Source: Phoronis australis (lineage: Eukaryota; Animalia; Phoronida). From it: DNA of 64,000 nt. How positions within the stretch are numbered: the stretch's first letter is position 1; every line of letters starts with the position of its first letter. Position numbers and translations under genes: made by a program. Below, one piece after another: positions 48,391 to 64,000 of the stretch. Where the stretch lies: contig NMRA01000512.1 in assembly GCA_002633005.1 (NCBI GenBank), positions 66,540 through 130,539 of the forward strand. Direction: 5' to 3'. The notes beneath the pieces were generated by a model. It saw nothing but the letters and a program-made list of their open reading frames with translations. It made no database searches and was not told the DNA's origin.

Positions 48391-52795
<4,405 letters not shown>

Positions 52796-53396
52796 TCTGA
52801 ATAATAAAAATTACCAACAACTGATTGACTGGAATATTGCAACTGACAGTTATGAATTCAATGTTTTTTTCTTTGTAAAGTAACTCCAAGAAAGATTGGT
52901 TTTAAACATATGCTAACTCCTCGCATCTCACAAGTCAACACCAGATTTGTTTAACGCCTTTTAAATATCCATTCGCAGCTTTAAGTTTAACCTAGTTACC
53001 AAAGCCATTTTGACGGATCGACAGTCAGATTTGGGTGGTCAAACAGCGAATTATTTAGTGATGGAATATCTGTTTGATCGCTACTCAATCAAAATTTACA
53101 AGTTCGCAGTGAATCAACGGCACTGACGTGTTACCCGGCTAGTGTAGGACGTGCCAACTTGAGAAGCCGGTTACACACGATTTTTACAAAACTGGTGAAA
53201 GTAAACAATAAATAACAGTTAACAATACCTGATGACAGCCTTTCAATAAAGAACAACTTTTTCGGAAAAGAGTAAAGATGAAAGAGATGAAGTTCACGAG
53301 TTATCTTCGAAATTTGTTCCCTACTTTTCGAGTTCCCCTGTGAAGTAAGCTAGCGGAGATCACAGCGTGTAGGGTTTTCTCATTTCTTTGGGCGAG

Positions 53397-53525
53397 CGTG
53401 TCGATTTTTCATTGGCTACTATGTTCCTTGTTGTCCTAAAGTGATTGGATACGTTCAATCACGTGCAAGCGTGTTTCTCTTTTATTGGTGGGTGTCAAAT
53501 TTGACCTTCTGAAAAGGACACGTCA
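53397..53525 (-). promoter_or_regulatory. HSPA5 ER-stress promoter: two ERSE-like elements and a UPRE-like site
   Basis: Minus strand CCAAT-N9-ACACG at 53415-53397 and 53488-53470; third CCAAT at ~53444-53448; TGACGTGT at 53525-53518. Confidence 0.75.
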
Positions 53526-54059
53526 GTATACGTCATCTCCGGACATGCGCATCGTAAAATACTTGAACGCACATGGTCTTTTGCGCCAAGATTTCGTAGG
53601 AGTAGGACGTGGTTTCAGTCTTAGATGAACCTGAAAAAAATTGGGGTTAGTTAGGTTCTAGTACATATCTGTTTTTCGTTTATTCAATTTATGAGTCAAA
53701 ATTTCACACTGCTAATGGGCAATTGACGTACTTTTAAGAAACATCAAAAATCTTTCTCGTGTGTTGGACTTTCCAAACTGAAGCACAAAATTCGCTTAAA
53801 ATTCGCTCAGGCCTACGGAACCAGAACACCAACCATAAGACGCTCTTAAATCGTGCAATAGTGGTATTAACTATTTGGGCACTGGTTGCGTGTATCGATC
53901 TTTGATTTTGAGAACCAGACAATCTGCAATCACTGAATAACTGGTCCGTTATTGGCGTTATTCATTGGATGAAACTGGTTCTCAAAATCCGTGAATTACT
54001 GACTAGCTTGTGTGCGCACCCAGGGGCAAGGTTTGGAATTTTCTGCGGAAACGCGGATT

Positions 54060-54440
54060 TCCGCGTTTTTCTTTTATTCTCTCCGCATCATATGTACGTT
54101 ATATTTCCGCGGAAAAAAATCTGATTTGCCATGAAATTATCGCGGCAAATTGGTTTCTCACCGCAGCATTGCTAACGACTCGAAAAGCGGAAATCTTAAT
54201 GTTTCGGAGGAACGAAAACTGTACTTGCAGATCACAGGCGCTCGAATTTCCGAATGACTTGTAAACCACATATAACAAGGCTTTGAATTGTCCGCGTATT
54301 TTATTTTATTTCCGCGTAAAAAAAATCTGATTTGATATAAAAAAATTTCCTGCAAATTACTTTCTTACCGCGGCGTTGCCGACTACTTTCACCTCAAAAG
54401 CGGAAGTTGCTCTTTATGTTTTGGAGGAACGTAAATTGTC
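54060..54440. repeat. ~230-bp degenerate direct duplication in the HSPA5-divergent promoter region
   Basis: tttccgcg.aaaaaaatctgatttg...aaaagcggaa...ggaggaacg.aaa.tgt occurs at ~54100-54222 and ~54308-54440. Confidence 0.75.
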
Positions 54441-55675
54441 AACATTGCCGGGGCATCTGGGATAGCATGGTGGATTTTTAAATGGCGTCCCGTGTGATTG
54501 TAAACCGCGGTGACAAATACTACGACTCTGCAGCCGAAAATGTGTGGGGGTGGGAGTGGACGCCCCTGCTAAAAAGACGCTGACATACGCTTCTGGAAGT
54601 GGCAGTTTTTTTAGTCCTCTCGGTTTTTGTCGGCAAAAGGCCCATATCGACTATTTCAAGGCTGCGAAGCACGCGTTTTGGGCCGTAAAAATTTCCGCTT
54701 TTTTGTCATTGGCCATTGCAAGCCCTGATACTAGAAACATGTTTTCTTAGTAGTGAGTGACGTCAGCGGCAATCGGGGAACAAATAAATTCAAGCGCCTG
54801 TGCCTGGGATAGGGTGGTTCATCAATGGCGTCTGTGGTCAAAAATGCATGGAGCGTGGAGTAGACAGAATATTTCGTGGGAAAAGCAGATAAAAGAAATG
54901 GTCAATGTCTTCACAAACAACATAAGTCAAGGTTTTTGCTCTGTAAACTTTGAGAGAGGAACAATTACGGAGTGCTTGGCCGAGTCGCCTTGGACGAAGT
55001 TGGAATCTGAGGACCAACTGAAAATGATGACACGCTAGAAATAACGCTTCCTGAAAGAAATTTAACCGTAACCGGTTATTTGTTGGGATTGAAATCGTAG
55101 CATGTGAGTGATGTATGGAATTCTTTTGTTTGATCCCACATGCACGGCCATTGCCGTTGGCTGCTAGTGCTAAGCCTGACCGTCTGAGTGCGATTTTCTA
55201 CGTGTCACCGAAACGGGATACAAAGTGCTATTTTAGTTATTGCATGTGTGTTTTAAATTGCCGTTTATGTATTTCAATTTATTTTGACATTTTTCGTGAC
55301 AAGAGTTTTGCACTTCGGGAGAAATGATCACGTGACAGATTCTGAATGATCTGATTGGTCTAAGCCATTGTTTACAAATTCCGCCAGCTATGAAACTACT
55401 TGCTTCTCATAGTTACACAAGGACTGGTCTTATGATCCACACAACTATTTCATTTGAACAACAGTGAAAAGTCTGAGAATGTATGCAAAAGTGCTTGTTA
55501 ATAATTTCTTTGAATTATTCTTATACAGTGATATGCTCATAATTACTAGGGTGAAGCTTTATTGAGCATTTGTGAAGTGGAATGGTGAAACCAAATTGTC
55601 TTAAACCATTTTCATGAAACGGCGCCTGGCAAGGTTTTTAGTCGCCTGGTTCTACTGTATTGTGTAAATGAAACA

Positions 55676-55743
55676 AACCTGTGATGAACCATACTTGTCG
55701 TAACATGATCATGAATGTAGACAGAGCTAGGTCACTGAGGTGT
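55676..55743 (+). ncRNA. Box C/D snoRNA candidate, target not identified
   Basis: C box GTGATGA 55681-55687, D' ATGA, C'-like ATGTAGA, D CTGA 55735-55738, terminal stem acct/aggt, ~70 nt upstream of acceptor 55811. Confidence 0.6.
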
Positions 55744-56181
55744 TGAAAATGGTCTTCGTTATTAACAACTAACAGTGTAGCATGTTACTCAACTAACTTG
55801 CGTCATTTCAGATTGTGCTGACGATTCAAGGATGACCAGGAAACACTTCCACAGAGCAGGTCTGTTTGAGTTGAGATTCTCATCCTCACAGTTTCAGTAA
55901 TTCTCATGATTATTTCGCCGCCAAAACAATTTGCCAAAATTGCATTTTTGGTATTCTCAAAGGCTAATTGCCATGCTGCAAATACATGGGACTTTACCAA
56001 ATGGTATTTTAAGGCATCCAAGCTAATATTAAATAACTATTTTTAATTTGTGCTTTTGTCAAGGAATTTGAAAACAGAAAAGTATCGCATGTGCGCCGTA
56101 TTGTGTGCAAAATGTGTGGAAACTTGTCATTCTGGTTTATTTTTTGTTACTTTTAACTTCGTGTGGTACTAAAAAACAATG

Positions 56182-56252
56182 CACTTGCCAGTGAGGACAT
56201 TATCTAGGCTGAAGTAAATGTCGACATTAGATTGAGGTCTCTGAGGCATGTG
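56182..56252 (+). ncRNA. Box C/D snoRNA candidate, target not identified
   Basis: C-like GTGAGGA, D' CTGA, C'-like ATGTCGA, D CTGA, stem cacttgcc/ggcatgtg, ~66 nt upstream of acceptor 56318. Confidence 0.55.
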
Positions 56253-57743
56253 AGTTATGGTGTTGTTTCTCGTGACATGAGAGATTGCTTTTTCTGAACC
56301 CTTTGATGTTAATTTCAGATGTGCTGGCGTAGTAGCGTGTGGATTTGTTGAGATTTCTAAAACCATGTGCAAATACCCGGTTACATGGAGCTGCATCTCA
56401 GCTCATTGGTCTACATTCGGTGTCTTGATAGCACAGGTAGGCCACCTTTGTTCTCAAGTCTATACAAAAGTGTGAACTTGCTGGCTAATTCCTTATCTCT
56501 CTGATTGCTTGATCAAATTAGAAACCCAACATTTAGCCACAGTGTGAATTGTGAATATGGAGTTTGTTGAAAACTGTCAGATGTTTTCAAGAACGTGTTT
56601 AGTGTCGAAAATAGTATCCTGTAAATCACTGAACCGTGTTCAGTAAGTATTGTGACGTGTTGGAAAATAATACTGCATGATGCGGGTTATGTGAGCTCCC
56701 AAGGTACGTGGTTAGCGTAAAAGTCACCTATTTGCAGAATGCTTTTGTTTTCATCTTTACAAGTTGTAAATGTATACAACTGCACTTTGTTTAGTGTAGA
56801 TGATGTTCAAATAGCGTTGTCGTCTACTTACTGCTATGCAGTAGTGTTGTTAAGAGCATGTTTATAGAGAAATGAATGTTTTTTAATGGTTGTCAGTGTT
56901 CTCCACAACAAAAATTCCAAACTCTACCCAAATATTTTTGTTAGTAGTAATCACTGTTCATACCCTAGCAACATGGTGTGTATTAATATACGTTTTAAAA
57001 GTGTACACTGAACTGGTATGACCTACTTTTTGACTTTCCTACCAATTTTTCACCATAAAATCCAACTAAAGGTTACAAGTTCCTTTAATAATAAAAATGT
57101 CAATTCTAGTATCAATTCTACTTATCAAATATTACTAACGATGTGACCTAGTAATTAGGGACACCTGTTGTTCAGTTGAATAAGTTCTAATTCGCCACCA
57201 GATGTCAGTCAAAATCAAAATCCTTTAAATTAAGCATATCAAGTTGTTAATTTACGGGTTTAAGTGCAAAATTTTAAAGTTAAAATAATATTGCTGGCTA
57301 GTCAATTATTAAAATAAGGTAGCTGACACCATAAAATTATGTTAAAAATAGAATTTCTTCAGATGTTTTTAGCAATAATTTACACTCAATTATTACAAAA
57401 ATTAGGTCATATATGTAATAGGAACTATGTCTGATGTTGGCTAATTCACCCTCTTTTTGATTCTGAGGTCAAAAGTGCCAAGCCAGCCAAAGTTTTAACT
57501 TGTCGCGGCACTTTTCAAACTCAACGCGCATTCTCCAAACTCAATGTGTCAAAATTTAAACTCGTTGCCGCGTCGAGTCAAAACCGGTCGTGGAGAACAC
57601 TGGTTGTGACGTATATGTGAACATACCTTTGGTAGAAGTAGTTGTATTTGGGGGCAGAAAAAATGCTAGATCATTTTTGTGCTGTAGAAAAATTTATTGT
57701 CGGAACTTAAAAATCTTTTGAGTATATTTCTGTTGAGGCCTTC

Positions 57744-57825
57744 GAACCCTGTCTATGATGCTCTTGTATATTTGCTACTCTTGACTGTCTGGTATGACGA
57801 ATCGACAATTCTGAGGCAAGGGTTC
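57744..57825 (+). ncRNA. SNORD76: Box C/D snoRNA, SNORD76-like (28S Am, yeast Am1449-equivalent)
   Basis: C ATGATGC; guide ATATTTGCTACT antisense to 28S AGUAGCAAAUAU, followed by C-TTGA (D') as in vertebrate U76; C' ATGACGA; D CTGA; stem gaaccct/agggttc. Confidence 0.8.
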
Positions 57826-58767
57826 TGGTACTAAACTTCAAATACGTACCTCTTGATATGTTAACAGTTGATATTCTTCAACTGTCTTTGAATTTTCTGC
57901 TCAAACTTTGTTTTTCAGCTGTCAGCTGTGTAACCACAGAAAGTACGGCTCATTACTTTTGAGGTATGTTTTTAGTGGGCAGTTTGATCTAATCTTGGTA
58001 CCAGTATATGCAGGGCTTGGCACTTCGCATGATGTTGATTTGTCAAATCTGATCTGACAAAATTCCCAAGGAAATGAGGTCGCTAAAACAAAGACACCCT
58101 GTGTGAGGAAGTCCTGGCCACCACAAACGACATTTGGTTGGCGATATCTGAAAAACACAAAGTGGGACATCTGAATGTTGAAAGCTTCGGGCAACTGTGC
58201 AAGTACTCTTAAACACCCAAGTGCTGTTATTTTTGGTTGAACAGTAAATTGGGCATATATTGCCTGATGAGTGAGTTTTCATTGCGTGAGTTTTCATTGC
58301 GTGAGTTTTCATTGCGGATCAATATCCCACCCGAAATAAGCTCCTACCTCAGGGAAAACAAATGACCACTAGGACATTCGTGCATATGTCTTGTGACGGG
58401 ACGTTCGTAACTTTACGCTTATTCTTATTGAGTTGCAAATGTTCACTTATTCTTATGCTAATGTCTTTGTTGCGTCTCAGTGCGCCTTTGTTACGTGGGC
58501 ATGTGGGCGCGACTGTATGTGTCGGGCACTTCGCTAGCGACAGGCTTAGGAGAAGGGTGTTTCCTTCTTTTGCTTTCACGGAAAGTTGATCGTTATCATG
58601 TGCAAATTGAACTGAAACGAATGCCTGATGAGAGAAAATACATATTTTGAGGTTCAGTGGAGACTTGCTCTGTTACAGTCTGAAATGCTGTCATTGTCAT
58701 TTCAACTAAGTGAGGTGACAATTTTTCCTGACCAGTTCCTTAGTTGTCACATTTTTATTGCCTATGT

Positions 58768-58843
58768 GCAGTCCTGCGTGATGATTGCATTAGTAATGGA
58801 AATCTCTCAGAACAAGGGCTGTTGAGGTACGTAATCTGACTGT
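58768..58843 (+). ncRNA. SNORD79: Box C/D snoRNA, SNORD79-like (copy A, one guide mismatch)
   Basis: C GTGATGA 58778; guide ATGGAAATCTCT + D' CAGA (target 28S GAGAUUCCCA); D CTGA 58836; stem cagtc/gactg. Confidence 0.7.
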
Positions 58844-60395
58844 TTGCATAAAGGCGGGTCACCTATAGTCTAGACGCATTTCCTGAAAAGAGCCCTGTAT
58901 AAGGTTCTAGAAGCATTTTTTAGTAAAAGTTGGGAACAAGACTTTTTCACACAATCAAGGCATGGCGAATTCAACTAACCCTGTTCCCAAGCCGAATTTT
59001 GCATTTTTGACCATCTAATTAGCATAAACAAAATGGCGGCCAAATTGTCAAGTTAAGATGTATTTTTGTAATAGAAATCATAATATACCATTTAAAATGG
59101 TGAAAAGTCTCACCTGTACACTTCTTGTAAATACTTCTTGAGCAATAGATCACTTATGAAAACTAAAAAATGCATTTCTAAAAACTAATTATGCAAATTA
59201 GGTGCCGCCATTACCATACAATGTAATTTGAGTCTTAAGTTTGTGCTCCTGCAGGCTAACTTGAAAAATGAGGTGTTAATACTTATATTTTCATGGTCAA
59301 CAAACATGCTANNNNNNNNNNNNNNNNNNNNNNNNNNNNNNNNNNNNNNNNNNNNNNNNNNNNNNNNNNNNNNNNNNNNNNNNNNNNNNNNNNNNNNNNN
59401 NNNNNNNNNNNNNNNNNNNNNNNNNNNNNNNNNNNNNNNNNNNNNNNNNNNNNNNNNNNNNNNNNNNNNNNNNNNNNNNNNNNNNNNNNNNNNNNNNNNN
59501 NNNNNNNNNNNNNNNNNNNNNNNNNNNNNNNNNNNNNNNNNNNNNNNNNNNNNNNNNNNNNNNNNNNNNNNNNNNNNNNNNNNNNNNNNNNNNNNNNNNN
59601 NNNNNNNNNNNNNNNNNNNNNNNNNNNNNNNNNNNNNNNNNNNNNNNNNNNNNNNNNNNNNNNNNNNNNNNNNNNNNNNNNNNNNNNNNNNNNNNNNNNN
59701 NNNNNNNNNNNNNNNNNNNNNNNNNNNNNNNNNNNNNNNNNNNNNNNNNNNNNNNNNNNNNNNNNNNNNNNNNNNNNNNNNNNNNNNNNNNNNNNNNNNN
59801 NNNNNNNNNNNNNNNNNNNNNNNNNNNNNNNNNNNNNNNNNNNNNNNNNNNNNNNNNNNNNNNNNNNNNNNNNNNNNNNNNNNNNNNNNNNNNNNNNNNN
59901 NNNNNNNNNNNNNNNNNNNNNNNNNNNNNNNNNNNNNNNNNNNNNNNNNNNNNNNNNNNNNNNNNNNNNNNNNNNNNNNNNNNNNNNNNNNNNNNNNNNN
60001 NNNNNNNNNNNNNNNNNTTTTTAGCAATAATTTACACTCAATTATTACAAAAGTTAGGTCATATATGTAATAGGAACTATGTCTGATGTTGGCTAATTCA
60101 CCATCTTTTTGATTCTGAGGTCAAAAGTGCCAAGCCAGCCAAAGTTTTAACTTGTCGCGGCACTTTTCAAACTCAACGCGCATTCTCCAAACTCGACGCG
60201 TCAAAATTTAAACTCGTTGCCGCATCGAGTCAAAACCGGTCGTGGAGAACACTGGTTGTGACGTATATGTGAACATACCTTTGGTAGAAATAGTTGTATT
60301 TGGGGCAGAAAAAATGCTAGATCATTTTTGTGCTGTAGAAAAATTCATTGTCGGAACTTAAAAAATCTTTTGGGTATATTTCTGTTGAGGCCTTC

Positions 60396-60477
60396 GAACC
60401 CTGTCTATGATGCTCTTGTATATTTGCTACTCTTGACTGTCTGGTATGATGAATCGAAAATTCTGAGGCAAGGGTTC
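60396..60477 (+). ncRNA. SNORD76: SNORD76-like snoRNA, second copy/allele
   Basis: Same boxes and guide as 57744-57825; C' is canonical ATGATGA. Confidence 0.75.
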
Positions 60478-61091
60478 TGGTACTAAACTTCAAATACGTA
60501 ACTCTTGATATGTTAACAGCTGATATTCTTCAACTGTCTTTCATTTTTCTGCTCAAACTTTGTTTTTCAGCTGTCAGCTGTGTAACCACAGAAAGTACGG
60601 CTCATTGCTTTTGAGGTATGTTTTTAGTTGGCAGTTTGATCTAATCTTGGTACCAGTATATGCAGGGCTTGGCACTTCGCATGATGTTGATTTGTCAAAT
60701 CTGATCGGGCAAAATTCCGGAGGTCGCTAAAACAAAGACACCCTGTGTGAGGGAGTCCTGGCCACCACAAACGGCATTCGGTTGGCGACATCTGAAAAAC
60801 AAGAAGTGGGACATCTGAATGTTGAAAGCTTCGGGCAACTGTGCAAGTACTCTTAAACACCCAAGTGGTGTTATTTTTGGTTGAACAGTAAATTGGGCAT
60901 ATATTGCCTGATGAGTGAGTTTTCATTGCGGATCAATATCCCACCCGAAATAAGCTCCTACCTCAGGGAAAACAAACGACCACTAGGACATTCGTGCATA
61001 TGTCTGAAATGCTGTCATTGTCATTTCAACTAAGTGAGGTGACAATTTTTCCTGACCAGTTCCTTAGTTGTCACATTTTTATTGCCTATGT

Positions 61092-61164
61092 GCTGTCATG
61101 CATGATTGCGTTAGTAATGGGAATCTCTCAGAACAAGGGCTGTTGAGGTACGTAATCTGACTGT
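61092..61164 (+). ncRNA. SNORD79: SNORD79-like snoRNA, copy B (perfect guide, altered C box)
   Basis: Guide ATGGGAATCTCT-CAGA; C box lacks 3 nt (gcatgattg); D CTGA 61157-61160. Confidence 0.65.
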
Positions 61165-61367
61165 TTGCATAAAGGCGGGTCACCTATAGGTGTTAGTGAT
61201 ATTGGAATTGGGAATTCTGGGTAACAATAATTTATCATTTTTCAGAATGGTCTGCAGCCAAACGAAGATCTGGATACTGTTGGATTGAACTTGACGGTTG
61301 AAGCAGGTGATTATCTTTCTAAGAAAAAGTTGGACGAGCAAGAAAAAAAAATAAGTACATTGGAAGT

Positions 61368-61470
61368 GTTAGCTATGATGAAATTCTTGCCATAACTCAT
61401 TCGCAGTTTCCAACTCGAGAGGTCCCTGCCTTGATGAGGGCATAATCCTTCCTTGGATGTCTGAGCTAAC
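61368..61470 (+). ncRNA. SNORD14: U14 snoRNA (SNORD14)
   Basis: C ATGATGA; domain A CATTCGCAGTTTC (anti-18S GAAACUGCGAAUG); domain B CCTTCCTTGGATGT + D CTGA (18S Cm414 yeast/Cm462 human); stem gttagct/agctaac. Confidence 0.93.
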
Positions 61471-62003
61471 TTATATTTTTATGCGCCCACATATTTATAT
61501 GTGGACGCATTATAAAATTTTGAAGTCTCCTCTGAATACATTTTACAGCTTTTAATGCCCTGGGCACAATTAGGTAACTGGAAAATTGTGGTGAGGGGTA
61601 ATCCTNATATTGTACTCCTGGTCCCACGAATGTCTCTGATCTTGTTGATTTGGCGGCCATTTTGTTTATGCAAATTAAATGGTCAAAAACTCGAAATCCA
61701 GCTTGGGAACAGGCATAATCGAAATCAGCACACCATAATTATGCTAAAAAGTTAGGTTCTCCACTTTTACTAAAAAATGCCTCTAACATGCACATTTTTC
61801 AGAAATGCGTCTAGACTACTATAGGTGTGAGTGATATTGGAATTGGGAATTCTGAGTAACAATAATTTATCATTTTTCAGAATGGTCTGCAGCCAAACGA
61901 AGATCTGGATACTGTTGGATTGAACTTGACGGTTGAAGCAGGTGATTATCTTTCTAAGAAAAAGTTGGACGAGCAAGAAAAAAAAAATAAGTACATTGGA
62001 AGT

Positions 62004-62106
62004 GTTAGCTATGATGAAATTCTTGCCATAACTCATTCGCAGTTTCCAACTCGAGAGGTCCCTGCCTTGATGAGGGCATAATCCTTCCTTGGATGTCTGA
62101 GCTAAC
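62004..62106 (+). ncRNA. SNORD14: U14 snoRNA (SNORD14), identical second copy/allele
   Basis: Identical to 61368-61470. Confidence 0.93.
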
Positions 62107-62900
62107 TTATATTTTTATGCGCCCACATATTTATATGTGGACGCGTTATAAAATTTTGAAGTCTCCTCTGAATACATTTTACAGCTTTTAATGCCCTGGG
62201 CACAATTAGGTAACTGGAAAATTGTGGTGAGGGGTAATCCTGAACAAGCAATTCAGCCTAGCGTGTCGGGATTAACATCCAATAAAATGGGACAGTGCAG
62301 TTATTTTCCCCACCTGAATAAGCCAAAGTGGTCTTGAAAGTGGTTGCTCTTTATTCACAAAGGGAAGGGAACACCTGTGATGCGAGTGCTTCATGTCGTA
62401 CGAGACTGGCATTCCCCCGCTAAGACATAAGCACTCTCTTGAAAGTGTTTCGTGTCGATATGGGATTGGGTGTGGGTGTTAAGGGGCTCGCAGGTGGACA
62501 TGGGCATTAACCTGGACCGATGTAGTACCTGTGCCAGTAACGATTGCATTTTATTTGTTCAATTTTAATTATATCTGACTGCAGCACTTTGACAAACTAA
62601 CATGTCAGGAACTCCTTCATATATCTACATCGTCCATGTTAACACTGGAATGTACATTCTTTCTTTTTTAGTCTTGTATCAGAATTTGGTGTTAATACTG
62701 GAGATGAAGACGCAAAAGGTATGATTGTGAGCTCGCATAGGCGAGTAACAATGTCTTACTGATTTATATTGAAGTGAGTAATTTAAGTAGTTAAGTGTTG
62801 GAGAATTGTGTGTTGGTATAAGGTTCTTGTATGGGTTGCTTAATCATCGCTGATGTTAGCTCAAAATGAGGCTGCGTACCCTAAGTAGGTCCAACCACTT

Positions 62901-62972
62901 AGCCAATGATGAACGTTATCCCTGTCTGACGATATATTCTGGAGTCAAAGTGAATTCCTCGTTTCTGAGGTT
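62901..62972 (+). ncRNA. SNORD1: Dual-guide box C/D snoRNA, snR38/SNORD1-like plus an 18S guide
   Basis: C ATGATGA 62906; D' guide GTTATCCCTGT-CTGA (28S ACAGGGAUAAC); D guide GAATTCCTCGTT-T-CTGA (18S AACGAGGAAUUC); stem agcc/ggtt. Confidence 0.88.
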
Positions 62973-63820
62973 TGTGGTGGATGCAGGTGGGCGACGGGTT
63001 TCGCTTTGCTAAGTAATGAAAGCTCTGACGGAACCCAAGATTGTGTCGATTGACATTTAGCGTTGTGGAATGTGTTTACACTCGAGTGTCCTTGAGTATT
63101 ACAGAGGTATACAGCTATGACTTAGTTTTACTTTCCTTTTCTTTTAGACTCTGCTTGTGCAAATCATGCCAGCGATCTGCAGACTGAATTGGTATGTATT
63201 GTGTTGTTGGTGCATGCATTTTTGTTCTTCATCTTAAGAGCAACTTACAAACGAGAGGTTCTTGCATAATTTGGATCCAACTGAATGGATAAATTTTATC
63301 CTAGTGCAAGTCTGATCTGAAGGGTCAGCTTCTGGAGTTGAAATAGGTTCTGCGGAAGTTGTAAAGAAATAAGAGTGGTGTTATGCAAGTTTTAGTCTAG
63401 TCTTATTTCCTTACGGCCAACAGGGTAGTTTTTAGAGGTACTTTTAGTCATTAATGTTAGTGGTTTGCTTTCTTAGTTCATAATATCTGAACAATGTGGC
63501 TTTTGCACTTACGGTCTCTGTACTCGGTGCATTTTGAGTTAGAGAATATCGCCCAATCTGGTAATCACAGCCACATGGTTTAAATCAGACAAATGTAGCG
63601 GAAACTGTGAACTATGGAATGCACTTGCTCACATATCTAAACAACAATCCAGGGCTCTTACAATTTCTGAATGAAAATCACAAGTGTCCTGGTGTGAGTG
63701 CAGTCTCATAGTTGCAGCTTATCATAGTCAAATGAGTACGCATTATAATAGGATAATTGGCATGTCAGCTGACCTCGCCTAGTGCAGGACAAGGGTTAAG
63801 TAGCCTGTGTTTGTCCTTGG

Positions 63821-63907
63821 ATGCTTGTTATGATGATATTTTCCCCAACTGATCGATATATGCAGATCTTGTGCTATTACCAAGCCAGAACAAATCTGAA
63901 CAAGCAT
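63821..63907 (+). ncRNA. SNORD12: Box C/D snoRNA, SNORD12-like
   Basis: C ATGATGA; TTTTCCCC.. + D' CTGATCGA (28S GGGGAAAG); AAGCCAG near D CTGA as in vertebrate SNORD12; 9-bp stem atgcttgtt/aacaagcat; 77 nt upstream of acceptor 63984. Confidence 0.75.
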
Positions 63908-64000
63908 ATCATTTCCATATGAACCATGGTATGTTTCATAGGGCCTCTATTGTCTCTCTGACTTAACAAACTCTTGTGTTACAGGTCTTGTGATCTGCTG

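Follow-up and report, generated by a model that had tools for sequence, protein, structure and literature searches.

A spliced, probably non-coding box C/D snoRNA host transcript head-to-head with BiP in Phoronis australis

The 64,000-nucleotide (nt) stretch analysed here (the window) is part of contig NMRA01000512.1 of the phoronid Phoronis australis. Its + strand carries a spliced transcript of at least eight tiny exons, which is very probably a non-coding host of small nucleolar RNAs (snoRNAs) of the UHG/SNHG type. Box C/D units are located on the sense strand of 7/7 introns, one per intron, in the order orphan 1, orphan 2, U76-, SNORD79-, U14-, snR38- and SNORD12-like; the two orphans are recognised by boxes and position only. 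Transcription, strand, five junctions in raw reads, boxes, stems and complementarity to ribosomal RNA (rRNA) of other eukaryotes were observed directly. The locus is expressed, was previously unannotated and belongs to a gene class well known from flies and vertebrates. Its most unusual feature is a second guide in the snR38-like RNA.

Exon structure and expression

The RNA data consist of three raw RNA sequencing runs (X1, X2 and X3) and a contig set (X4), whose RNA nature is only guessed, all under the same species label. Reads were aligned over 52500–59310 and 61800–64000, with about 18–19% of each raw run used. The exons are as follows.

53578..53645, + strand: exon 1; junction 53645>55812; TCT/terminal oligopyrimidine (TOP)-like pyrimidine-rich start, exact first base inferred
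55812..55859, + strand: exon 2; junction reads
56319..56436, + strand: exon 3; junction reads; other individuals commonly have 1 nt inserted at 56374
57919..57963, + strand: exon 4; 45 nt; junction reads; skipped in one X4 contig
61881..61941, + strand: exon 5; junction 61941>62672; a further copy at 61246–61306 in block B (see below)
62672..62718, + strand: exon 6; junction to exon 7
63148..63191, + strand: exon 7; junction reads
63985..64000, + strand: exon 8; truncated by the window end; the ends of X4 contigs behind 63193 continue into it

Five GT-AG junctions are present in the raw reads of 3/3 runs, and three more come from contigs. The read counts (X1/X2/X3) are 8/5/30 for exons 1–2 (53645>55812, with 14 variant reads in X1 in addition), 36/26/35 for exons 2–3, 29/27/19 for exons 3–4, 30/33/40 for exons 5–6 (61941>62672) and 25/23/41 for exons 6–7. 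In all host junction reads, the first mate lies on the − strand, opposite to the reads of the neighbouring BiP gene (3/3 raw-read runs). One X4 contig runs from exon 3 through a single exon 4 into exon 5. The single spliced host of tiny GT-AG exons proposed in the initial annotation, with splicing to be checked in RNA reads, is supported by junction reads of all three runs, and open reading frame (ORF) analysis makes it probably non-coding.

The extent of the gene differs from that annotation. It had been placed from 54410 to 64000, but the transcript begins about 830 nt upstream, at approximately 53578; position 54410 lies in a repeat inside intron 1 with read piles on both strands and loose ends. 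The putative start is pyrimidine-rich with a TCT/TOP-like motif at 53577, and 10 X3 molecules end at 53593. At the other side, the host does cover the region up to 64000, but it leaves the window within exon 8, with its 3′ part beyond, and 60018–61605 duplicates part of it.

Box C/D units in the introns

At the Rfam gathering threshold, the whole window gives 0 matches. The relaxed scan (E up to 10, region 53000–64000) finds five families, all on the + strand; the Rfam check suggested with the annotation gave nothing at its strict level and these families below it. SNORD14 is matched at 61370–61468 and 62006–62104 with 63.9 bits (gathering 64; E 4e-12), SNORD12 at 63820–63908 with 35 bits (E 3.6e-4; plant Z103 39.5), snoR38 at 62898–62975 with 29.4 bits, the SNORD24 family at 57750–57818 and 60402–60470 with 28 bits, and SNORD79 at 58767–58844 and 61091–61165 with 25–27 bits. 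The other 53 kb of the window yield 5 weak Rfam matches, none of them a C/D snoRNA. A minus-strand match to Me28S-Cm3227 (E 0.22), located where reads cover both strands, was taken as chance. The window contains no tRNA.

A simple search for a C box and a D box closed by a canonical terminal stem finds six instances in the 7.0 kb of single-copy intron and 0 on the opposite strand, compared with four in 2 × 52.5 kb of control. Among 300 shuffles, 275 give none and no shuffle gives more than two. The SNORD79-like RNA has no canonical stem and is not among the six; one extra + strand match across the end of exon 6 was left uncounted. The units are listed below, with the second SNORD79-like copy of block B.

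55681..55738, + strand: orphan C/D unit 1; intron 1; C, D′, C′ and D boxes; two guides of 17 nt; distance to the 3′ splice site 73 nt
56191..56244, + strand: orphan C/D unit 2; intron 2; 54 nt; full box set; 74 nt from the 3′ splice site
57755..57814, + strand: SNORD76 (U76)-like; intron 3; D′ guide with 12 Watson–Crick (WC) pairs to 28S; 2′-O-methyladenosine (Am) predicted at the human 2350 site
58778..58839, + strand: SNORD79-like copy A; intron 4; C box without defects, single guide mismatch at position 8
61102–61160, + strand: SNORD79-like copy B; perfect 10-pair guide; C box damaged by a 3-base loss
62011..62100, + strand: U14 (SNORD14); intron 5; domains A and B; predicted 18S processing and 2′-O-methylcytidine (Cm) at the human 462 site
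62906..62968, + strand: snR38/SNORD1-like; intron 6; D′ guide with 11 WC pairs to 28S, human 2′-O-methylguanosine (Gm) 4362 site
63830..63899, + strand: SNORD12-like; intron 7; 8-pair D′ guide, short extra-pairing element

All five named RNAs and both orphans of the initial annotation are accounted for, and so in the main is the spacing of about 70–100 nt from the 3′ splice site that it described: 5/7 units lie at 73, 74, 104, 85 and 85 nt, the exceptions being U14 (571 nt) and the snR38-like RNA (179 nt). A third candidate at 55108–55187 in intron 1 shows boxes, yet lacks both a canonical stem and a target, and was not counted; 13–24 mostly stranded reads per run cover this weak C/D-like candidate. 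Directly 3′ of U14, a short palindromic dispersed repeat (62104–62149) reaches a read depth of 450–700, which stems from elsewhere in the transcriptome.

rRNA targets of the individual RNAs

Targets were sought in rRNA contigs of other eukaryotes from metagenomes, not of the same species; loci were identified by motifs, and the four that span 18S–28S served as references. Contiguous WC pairs in 4/4 references number 14 for U14, 12 for U76, 11 for snR38 and 10 for SNORD79 copy B. Shuffled guides reach at least 11 WC pairs in 0/3000 cases and 10 in 5/3000.

U14 has C/D boxes, a stem and domains A and B complementary to 18S; besides the 14 pairs, the references contain a domain A complement. In the snR38-like RNA, the guide and D′ box are identical to the Rfam consensus. 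For the U76-like RNA, position 5 of the D′ guide falls on an A two bases before the U24 C, in an rRNA set chosen with the guide word; the 12-pair match shows only that the guide word sits in rRNA beside the U24 site. The register agrees with chicken, where U76 addresses A2124 and U24 C2126 (PMC2653536), and the label 'SNORD76-like' holds against the Rfam assignment to the SNORD24 family. The D′ guide register of the SNORD79-like RNA is as in Rfam (Am3809 site), and the differing lesions of its two alleles suggest relaxed selection or another copy elsewhere. For the SNORD12-like RNA, the best register lies 69 nt after the SNORD79 site in the four references. The same offset of 69 separates the chicken sites 3319 and 3388 (PMC2653536) and the human sites (PMC11014333). 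An extra-pairing element has been reported for HBII-99 (PMC3116282).

The orphans could not be assigned: rRNA scans by pairing and by energy yield nothing conserved for either. Orphan 1 has no conserved rRNA match of at least 9 WC pairs and a best Rfam score of 15.9 bits; orphan 2 has no convincing rRNA target and reaches 15.1 bits. A fit of orphan 1 to 5.8S was dropped, as it held only in a few non-matching sequences. Its D guide (noted at 55735–55738) makes 6 pairs in the right register to a U28-type 18S C in 3/7 loci, too short to call.

A second guide in the intron 6 RNA

The D guide of the snR38-like RNA forms 12 contiguous WC pairs with 18S in 20/22 loci that hold the site, whereas 0/498 control 20-mers taken before CTGA reach 11. 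The target G is located 1158 nt after the U14 target in one locus and 1151 and 1163 nt after it in two others. The dimethyl-A landmark follows the target G at a distance of 209 nt in three loci and of 185–228 nt in most others; the sequence of this landmark is the one we take to mark the dimethylated adenosines of 18S. Since the offsets of 1158 and 209 match the spacing of Cm414, Gm1572 and A1781 in yeast (PMC5699541), we regard the target as the equivalent of yeast G1572. It is possible, if short of probable, that the second guide is functional and methylates this G; the best C′-like word overlaps five of the paired bases, which speaks against it.

If functional, the guide would act on an 18S G adjoining the 7-methylguanosine site of Bud23/WBSCR22, and the mark would be one reported only in yeast (Gm1572, snR57) among fly, human, yeast, Arabidopsis, Xenopus and Dictyostelium (PMC11014333 Table S4). 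Nor is Gm1572 among the conserved planarian sites listed in PMC11649923. The prediction is an 18S 2′-O-methyl G where fly, frog and human are unmethylated. In yeast, snR57 (18S Gm1572) and snR38 (25S Gm2815) are two separate RNAs; here both sites are matched by guides of the one intron 6 RNA.

Strength of the host assignment and proposed function

Several observations weigh against the assignment as a snoRNA host. Every snoRNA match scores below the Rfam gathering level. The rRNA was fetched with a pattern that contains the U76 guide, so the 12-pair match of U76 is built in. Each SNORD79 copy carries a lesion, and the SNORD12 guide has no more than 8 pairs. Joints 4–5, 3–5 and 7–8 are known solely from the ends of the presumed RNA contigs of X4. 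Read depth over the introns is just 1–3 at snR38 and SNORD12 and 5–19 at U14, and the mature snoRNAs are predicted only. Finally, an isoform that skips exon 4 has an open frame of at least 80 codons, a length reached in only 1.9% of 5000 shuffles.

As a working model, RNA polymerase II would initiate at the TCT/TOP-like initiator, and each intron would be spliced, debranched and trimmed to a fibrillarin-containing ribonucleoprotein with its one box C/D snoRNA. The U76-, SNORD79-, snR38- and SNORD12-like RNAs would guide 2′-O-methylation of 28S, and U14 would chaperone 18S processing and guide one Cm. Owing to their many early stop codons, the joined exons would be degraded by nonsense-mediated decay. 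The processing, guide and decay steps are drawn from established biology. The payload is best explained as an independent assortment through host switching, and the doubled middle of the locus is most likely an assembly of two alleles.

Coding potential and the doubled block

The long frame raises the alternative that a small protein is an additional, or even the main, product of the transcript, made from the exon 4-skipped isoform. The ATG at 56365 opens the frame, which stays open if exon 4 is left out, as it is in one X4 contig, and the rarity of such a frame in shuffles is in its favour. However, three ATGs lie upstream, and exon 4, included in 29/27/19 reads of X1/X2/X3, brings an in-frame stop. 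Nine bases past the ATG, the 1-nt insertion at 56374 (20/46 reads in X1, 13/39 in X2 and 0/15 in X3, and one X4 contig) shortens the frame to 42 codons. No Pfam match was found for 2/2 exon pieces tried. In the main isoform (447 nt within the window), the longest ORF has 31 codons and the frame of the first ATG 14. We consider a coding role highly improbable and retain the reading of a probably non-coding host.

The middle of the locus is present twice: 57366–58868 is repeated at 60018–61189 and 61184–61605 at 61819–62241, with the blocks 96–100% identical. Two features are defined here.

60018..61605, + strand: block B; second copy of the end of intron 3, U76, exon 4, SNORD79, exon 5 and U14
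58866..59311 (left part) and 61607–61818 (right part), no strand assigned: insertion resembling a miniature inverted-repeat transposable element (MITE) in intron 4 of copy A; terminal inverted repeats; absent from copy B

A true tandem duplication, with extra exons and two copies each of U76, SNORD79 and U14, would be in line with the usual expansion of hosts by intragenic duplication (PMC2653536), and the two SNORD79 copies do differ in box and guide. Against this, block B is bounded exactly by N positions: it starts at the end of the N gap 59312–60017 and stops at the single N at 61606. The two halves of the MITE flank the block and rejoin into a single allele, so that removal of the block, which carries the empty MITE site, gives one continuous allele. 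No back-joint from exon 5 to exon 5 is among the 2 joints listed, and the contig described above has a single exon 4. The duplication appears quite improbable, and block B is most likely the other haplotype, inserted by the assembly at the gap; the reads come from other individuals and do not by themselves prove the haplotypes. The polymorphic MITE lies between SNORD79 and the 3′ splice site and would shift SNORD79 from 85 to more than 650 nt from it in that allele.

The neighbouring BiP gene and the shared promoter

48391..53358, − strand: BiP/HSPA5 gene; Pfam HSP70, BiP-named homologues, C-terminal KDEL, junction reads; head-to-head with the host
53387..53577, no strand assigned: shared divergent promoter; motif scan with three CCAAT boxes, two elements resembling the endoplasmic reticulum (ER) stress response element (ERSE), one E-box and two cores resembling cAMP or unfolded protein response elements (CRE/UPRE)

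The scan used consensus motifs. The 5′ ends of BiP are located at 53358–53386, about 200 nt from the host start; its first exon (53229–53358) is non-coding. In a tree of BiP sequences, the organism falls loosely among lophotrochozoans other than molluscs, its probable group, without starred support. Through the short shared promoter, ER stress could induce the host together with BiP and couple the supply of snoRNAs to the unfolded protein response. The two ERSE-like elements (53397–53488; CCAAT, nine bases and ACACG on the BiP strand), among only 3 such matches in the window, fit this idea, but they face BiP. BiP junction reads fall from 421 in X1 and 270 in X2 to 19 in X3, a drop of about 20-fold between X1 and X3, while the host stays level (36/26/35 and 30/33/40) at similar read depth in these three samples of unknown condition. 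Co-regulation of the host with BiP is not supported, and we regard co-induction as quite improbable. The E-box of the scan is 118 nt 5′ of the host start. E-boxes near the start are also found at Myc-bound fly Uhg promoters (PMC4430873), and the possible parallel is a lead only.

Upstream of the host, the gene order over 762–53358 is THAP-domain, flotillin-1, GTF3C5 (Tau95), SKI2W and BiP. In human, the flotillin-1, GTF3C5, SKI2W and BiP genes map to 6p21.3 and 9q33-34, and GAS5 maps to 1q25; these regions belong to the major histocompatibility complex (MHC) paralogon. The segment may represent part of the proto-MHC block.

Relationship to GAS5

The initial annotation had suggested a GAS5 counterpart; this is not established. 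The locus works like GAS5 yet does not carry its full payload within the window: among U74, U75, U76, U77/80, U44, U78, U79, U47 and U81, only U76 and U79 are found within the window. They make up 2/5 of the identified guides, and equally 2/5 (U76 and snR38) belong to the payload of fly Uhg1. Of the different hosts over which the initial annotation has these guides spread, the literature used here documents GAS5 for U76 and HSPA8 for chicken U14.

If the host and vertebrate GAS5 went back to one locus of the bilaterian ancestor, the host would have gained U14, snR38 and SNORD12 and lost other guides. U76 followed by U79 is the GAS5 order, and U76 is in intron 3 also in the chicken GAS5-like host (PMC2653536). 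The neighbours flotillin-1, GTF3C5, SKI2W and BiP may point the same way through their human positions in the MHC paralogon, but synteny at chromosome scale is weak evidence. The chicken GAS5-like host has nine listed guide families, and just two of them were found in the window. The window lacks U80, U44 and U78, the guides placed between U76 and U79 in chicken, and 0/7 unassigned guides fit the U74 or U47 site. Fly Uhg1 has as many guides in common with the present host, and host switching is common (PMC3511168 and PMC13736004). We therefore think a common origin with GAS5 unlikely. It is correspondingly doubtful that the locus is a protostome descendant of GAS5 which has kept its ancestral place next to BiP in the proto-MHC gene block; if true, a non-coding snoRNA host would be dated to the bilaterian ancestor. 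Among the open-access papers listed for an amphioxus GAS5 host, for lophotrochozoan snoRNA hosts (judged by title) and for a BiP–snoRNA host pair, none describes the locus.

Comparison with known hosts

Vertebrate GAS5 (SNHG2), a non-coding, multi-intron C/D host with a TOP-type start, resembles the present host, which is probably non-coding and has a putative TOP-like start; both carry U76 before U79, and the intron 3 position of U76 is shared with the chicken GAS5-like gene. It differs in that U74, U75, U80/77, U44, U78, U47 and U81 were not found in the window, whereas the present host carries U14, snR38 and SNORD12 and adjoins BiP.

In yeast, snR190 and U14 form a cassette (PMC8536666). 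There, as here, U14 is co-expressed with a guide for the SNORD12/snR190 site, but from a single cassette and not from introns. The likeness is probably a coincidence.

The Drosophila hosts Uhg1, Uhg2, Uhg5 and Uhg7 are non-coding, as the present host probably is, and share with it tiny exons, one snoRNA per intron and an E-box near the start (PMC4430873). In the fly, U76 and snR38 are in Uhg1 and U14 in Uhg2 (PMC11014333 Tables S4 and S6 and the PMC4430873 supplement), Me28S-G2703 (SNORD12 site) in Uhg5 and two copies of Me28S-A2634 (SNORD79 site) in Uhg7 (PMC11014333). The Phoronis host unites the five families, with one copy each and longer introns. Domain B is complete in its U14; of the fly counterparts, U14b counts as an orphan and U14a has a 28S site assigned to it. 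As fly Uhg hosts already carry all five families, the mix is not unique, and the GAS5 claim is therefore left with two shared guides and the neighbours with human copies in the MHC paralogon. Host switching is the rule (PMC2655684, PMC3511168 and PMC13736004), so guides gathered here and spread over human hosts are to be expected. The locus adds a snoRNA host from a little-studied animal group, one that Rfam thresholds miss entirely. It provides a third arrangement of the same guides, beside the fly and vertebrate hosts, and so helps in asking if non-coding hosts are old loci with exchangeable cargo or have newly arisen each time.

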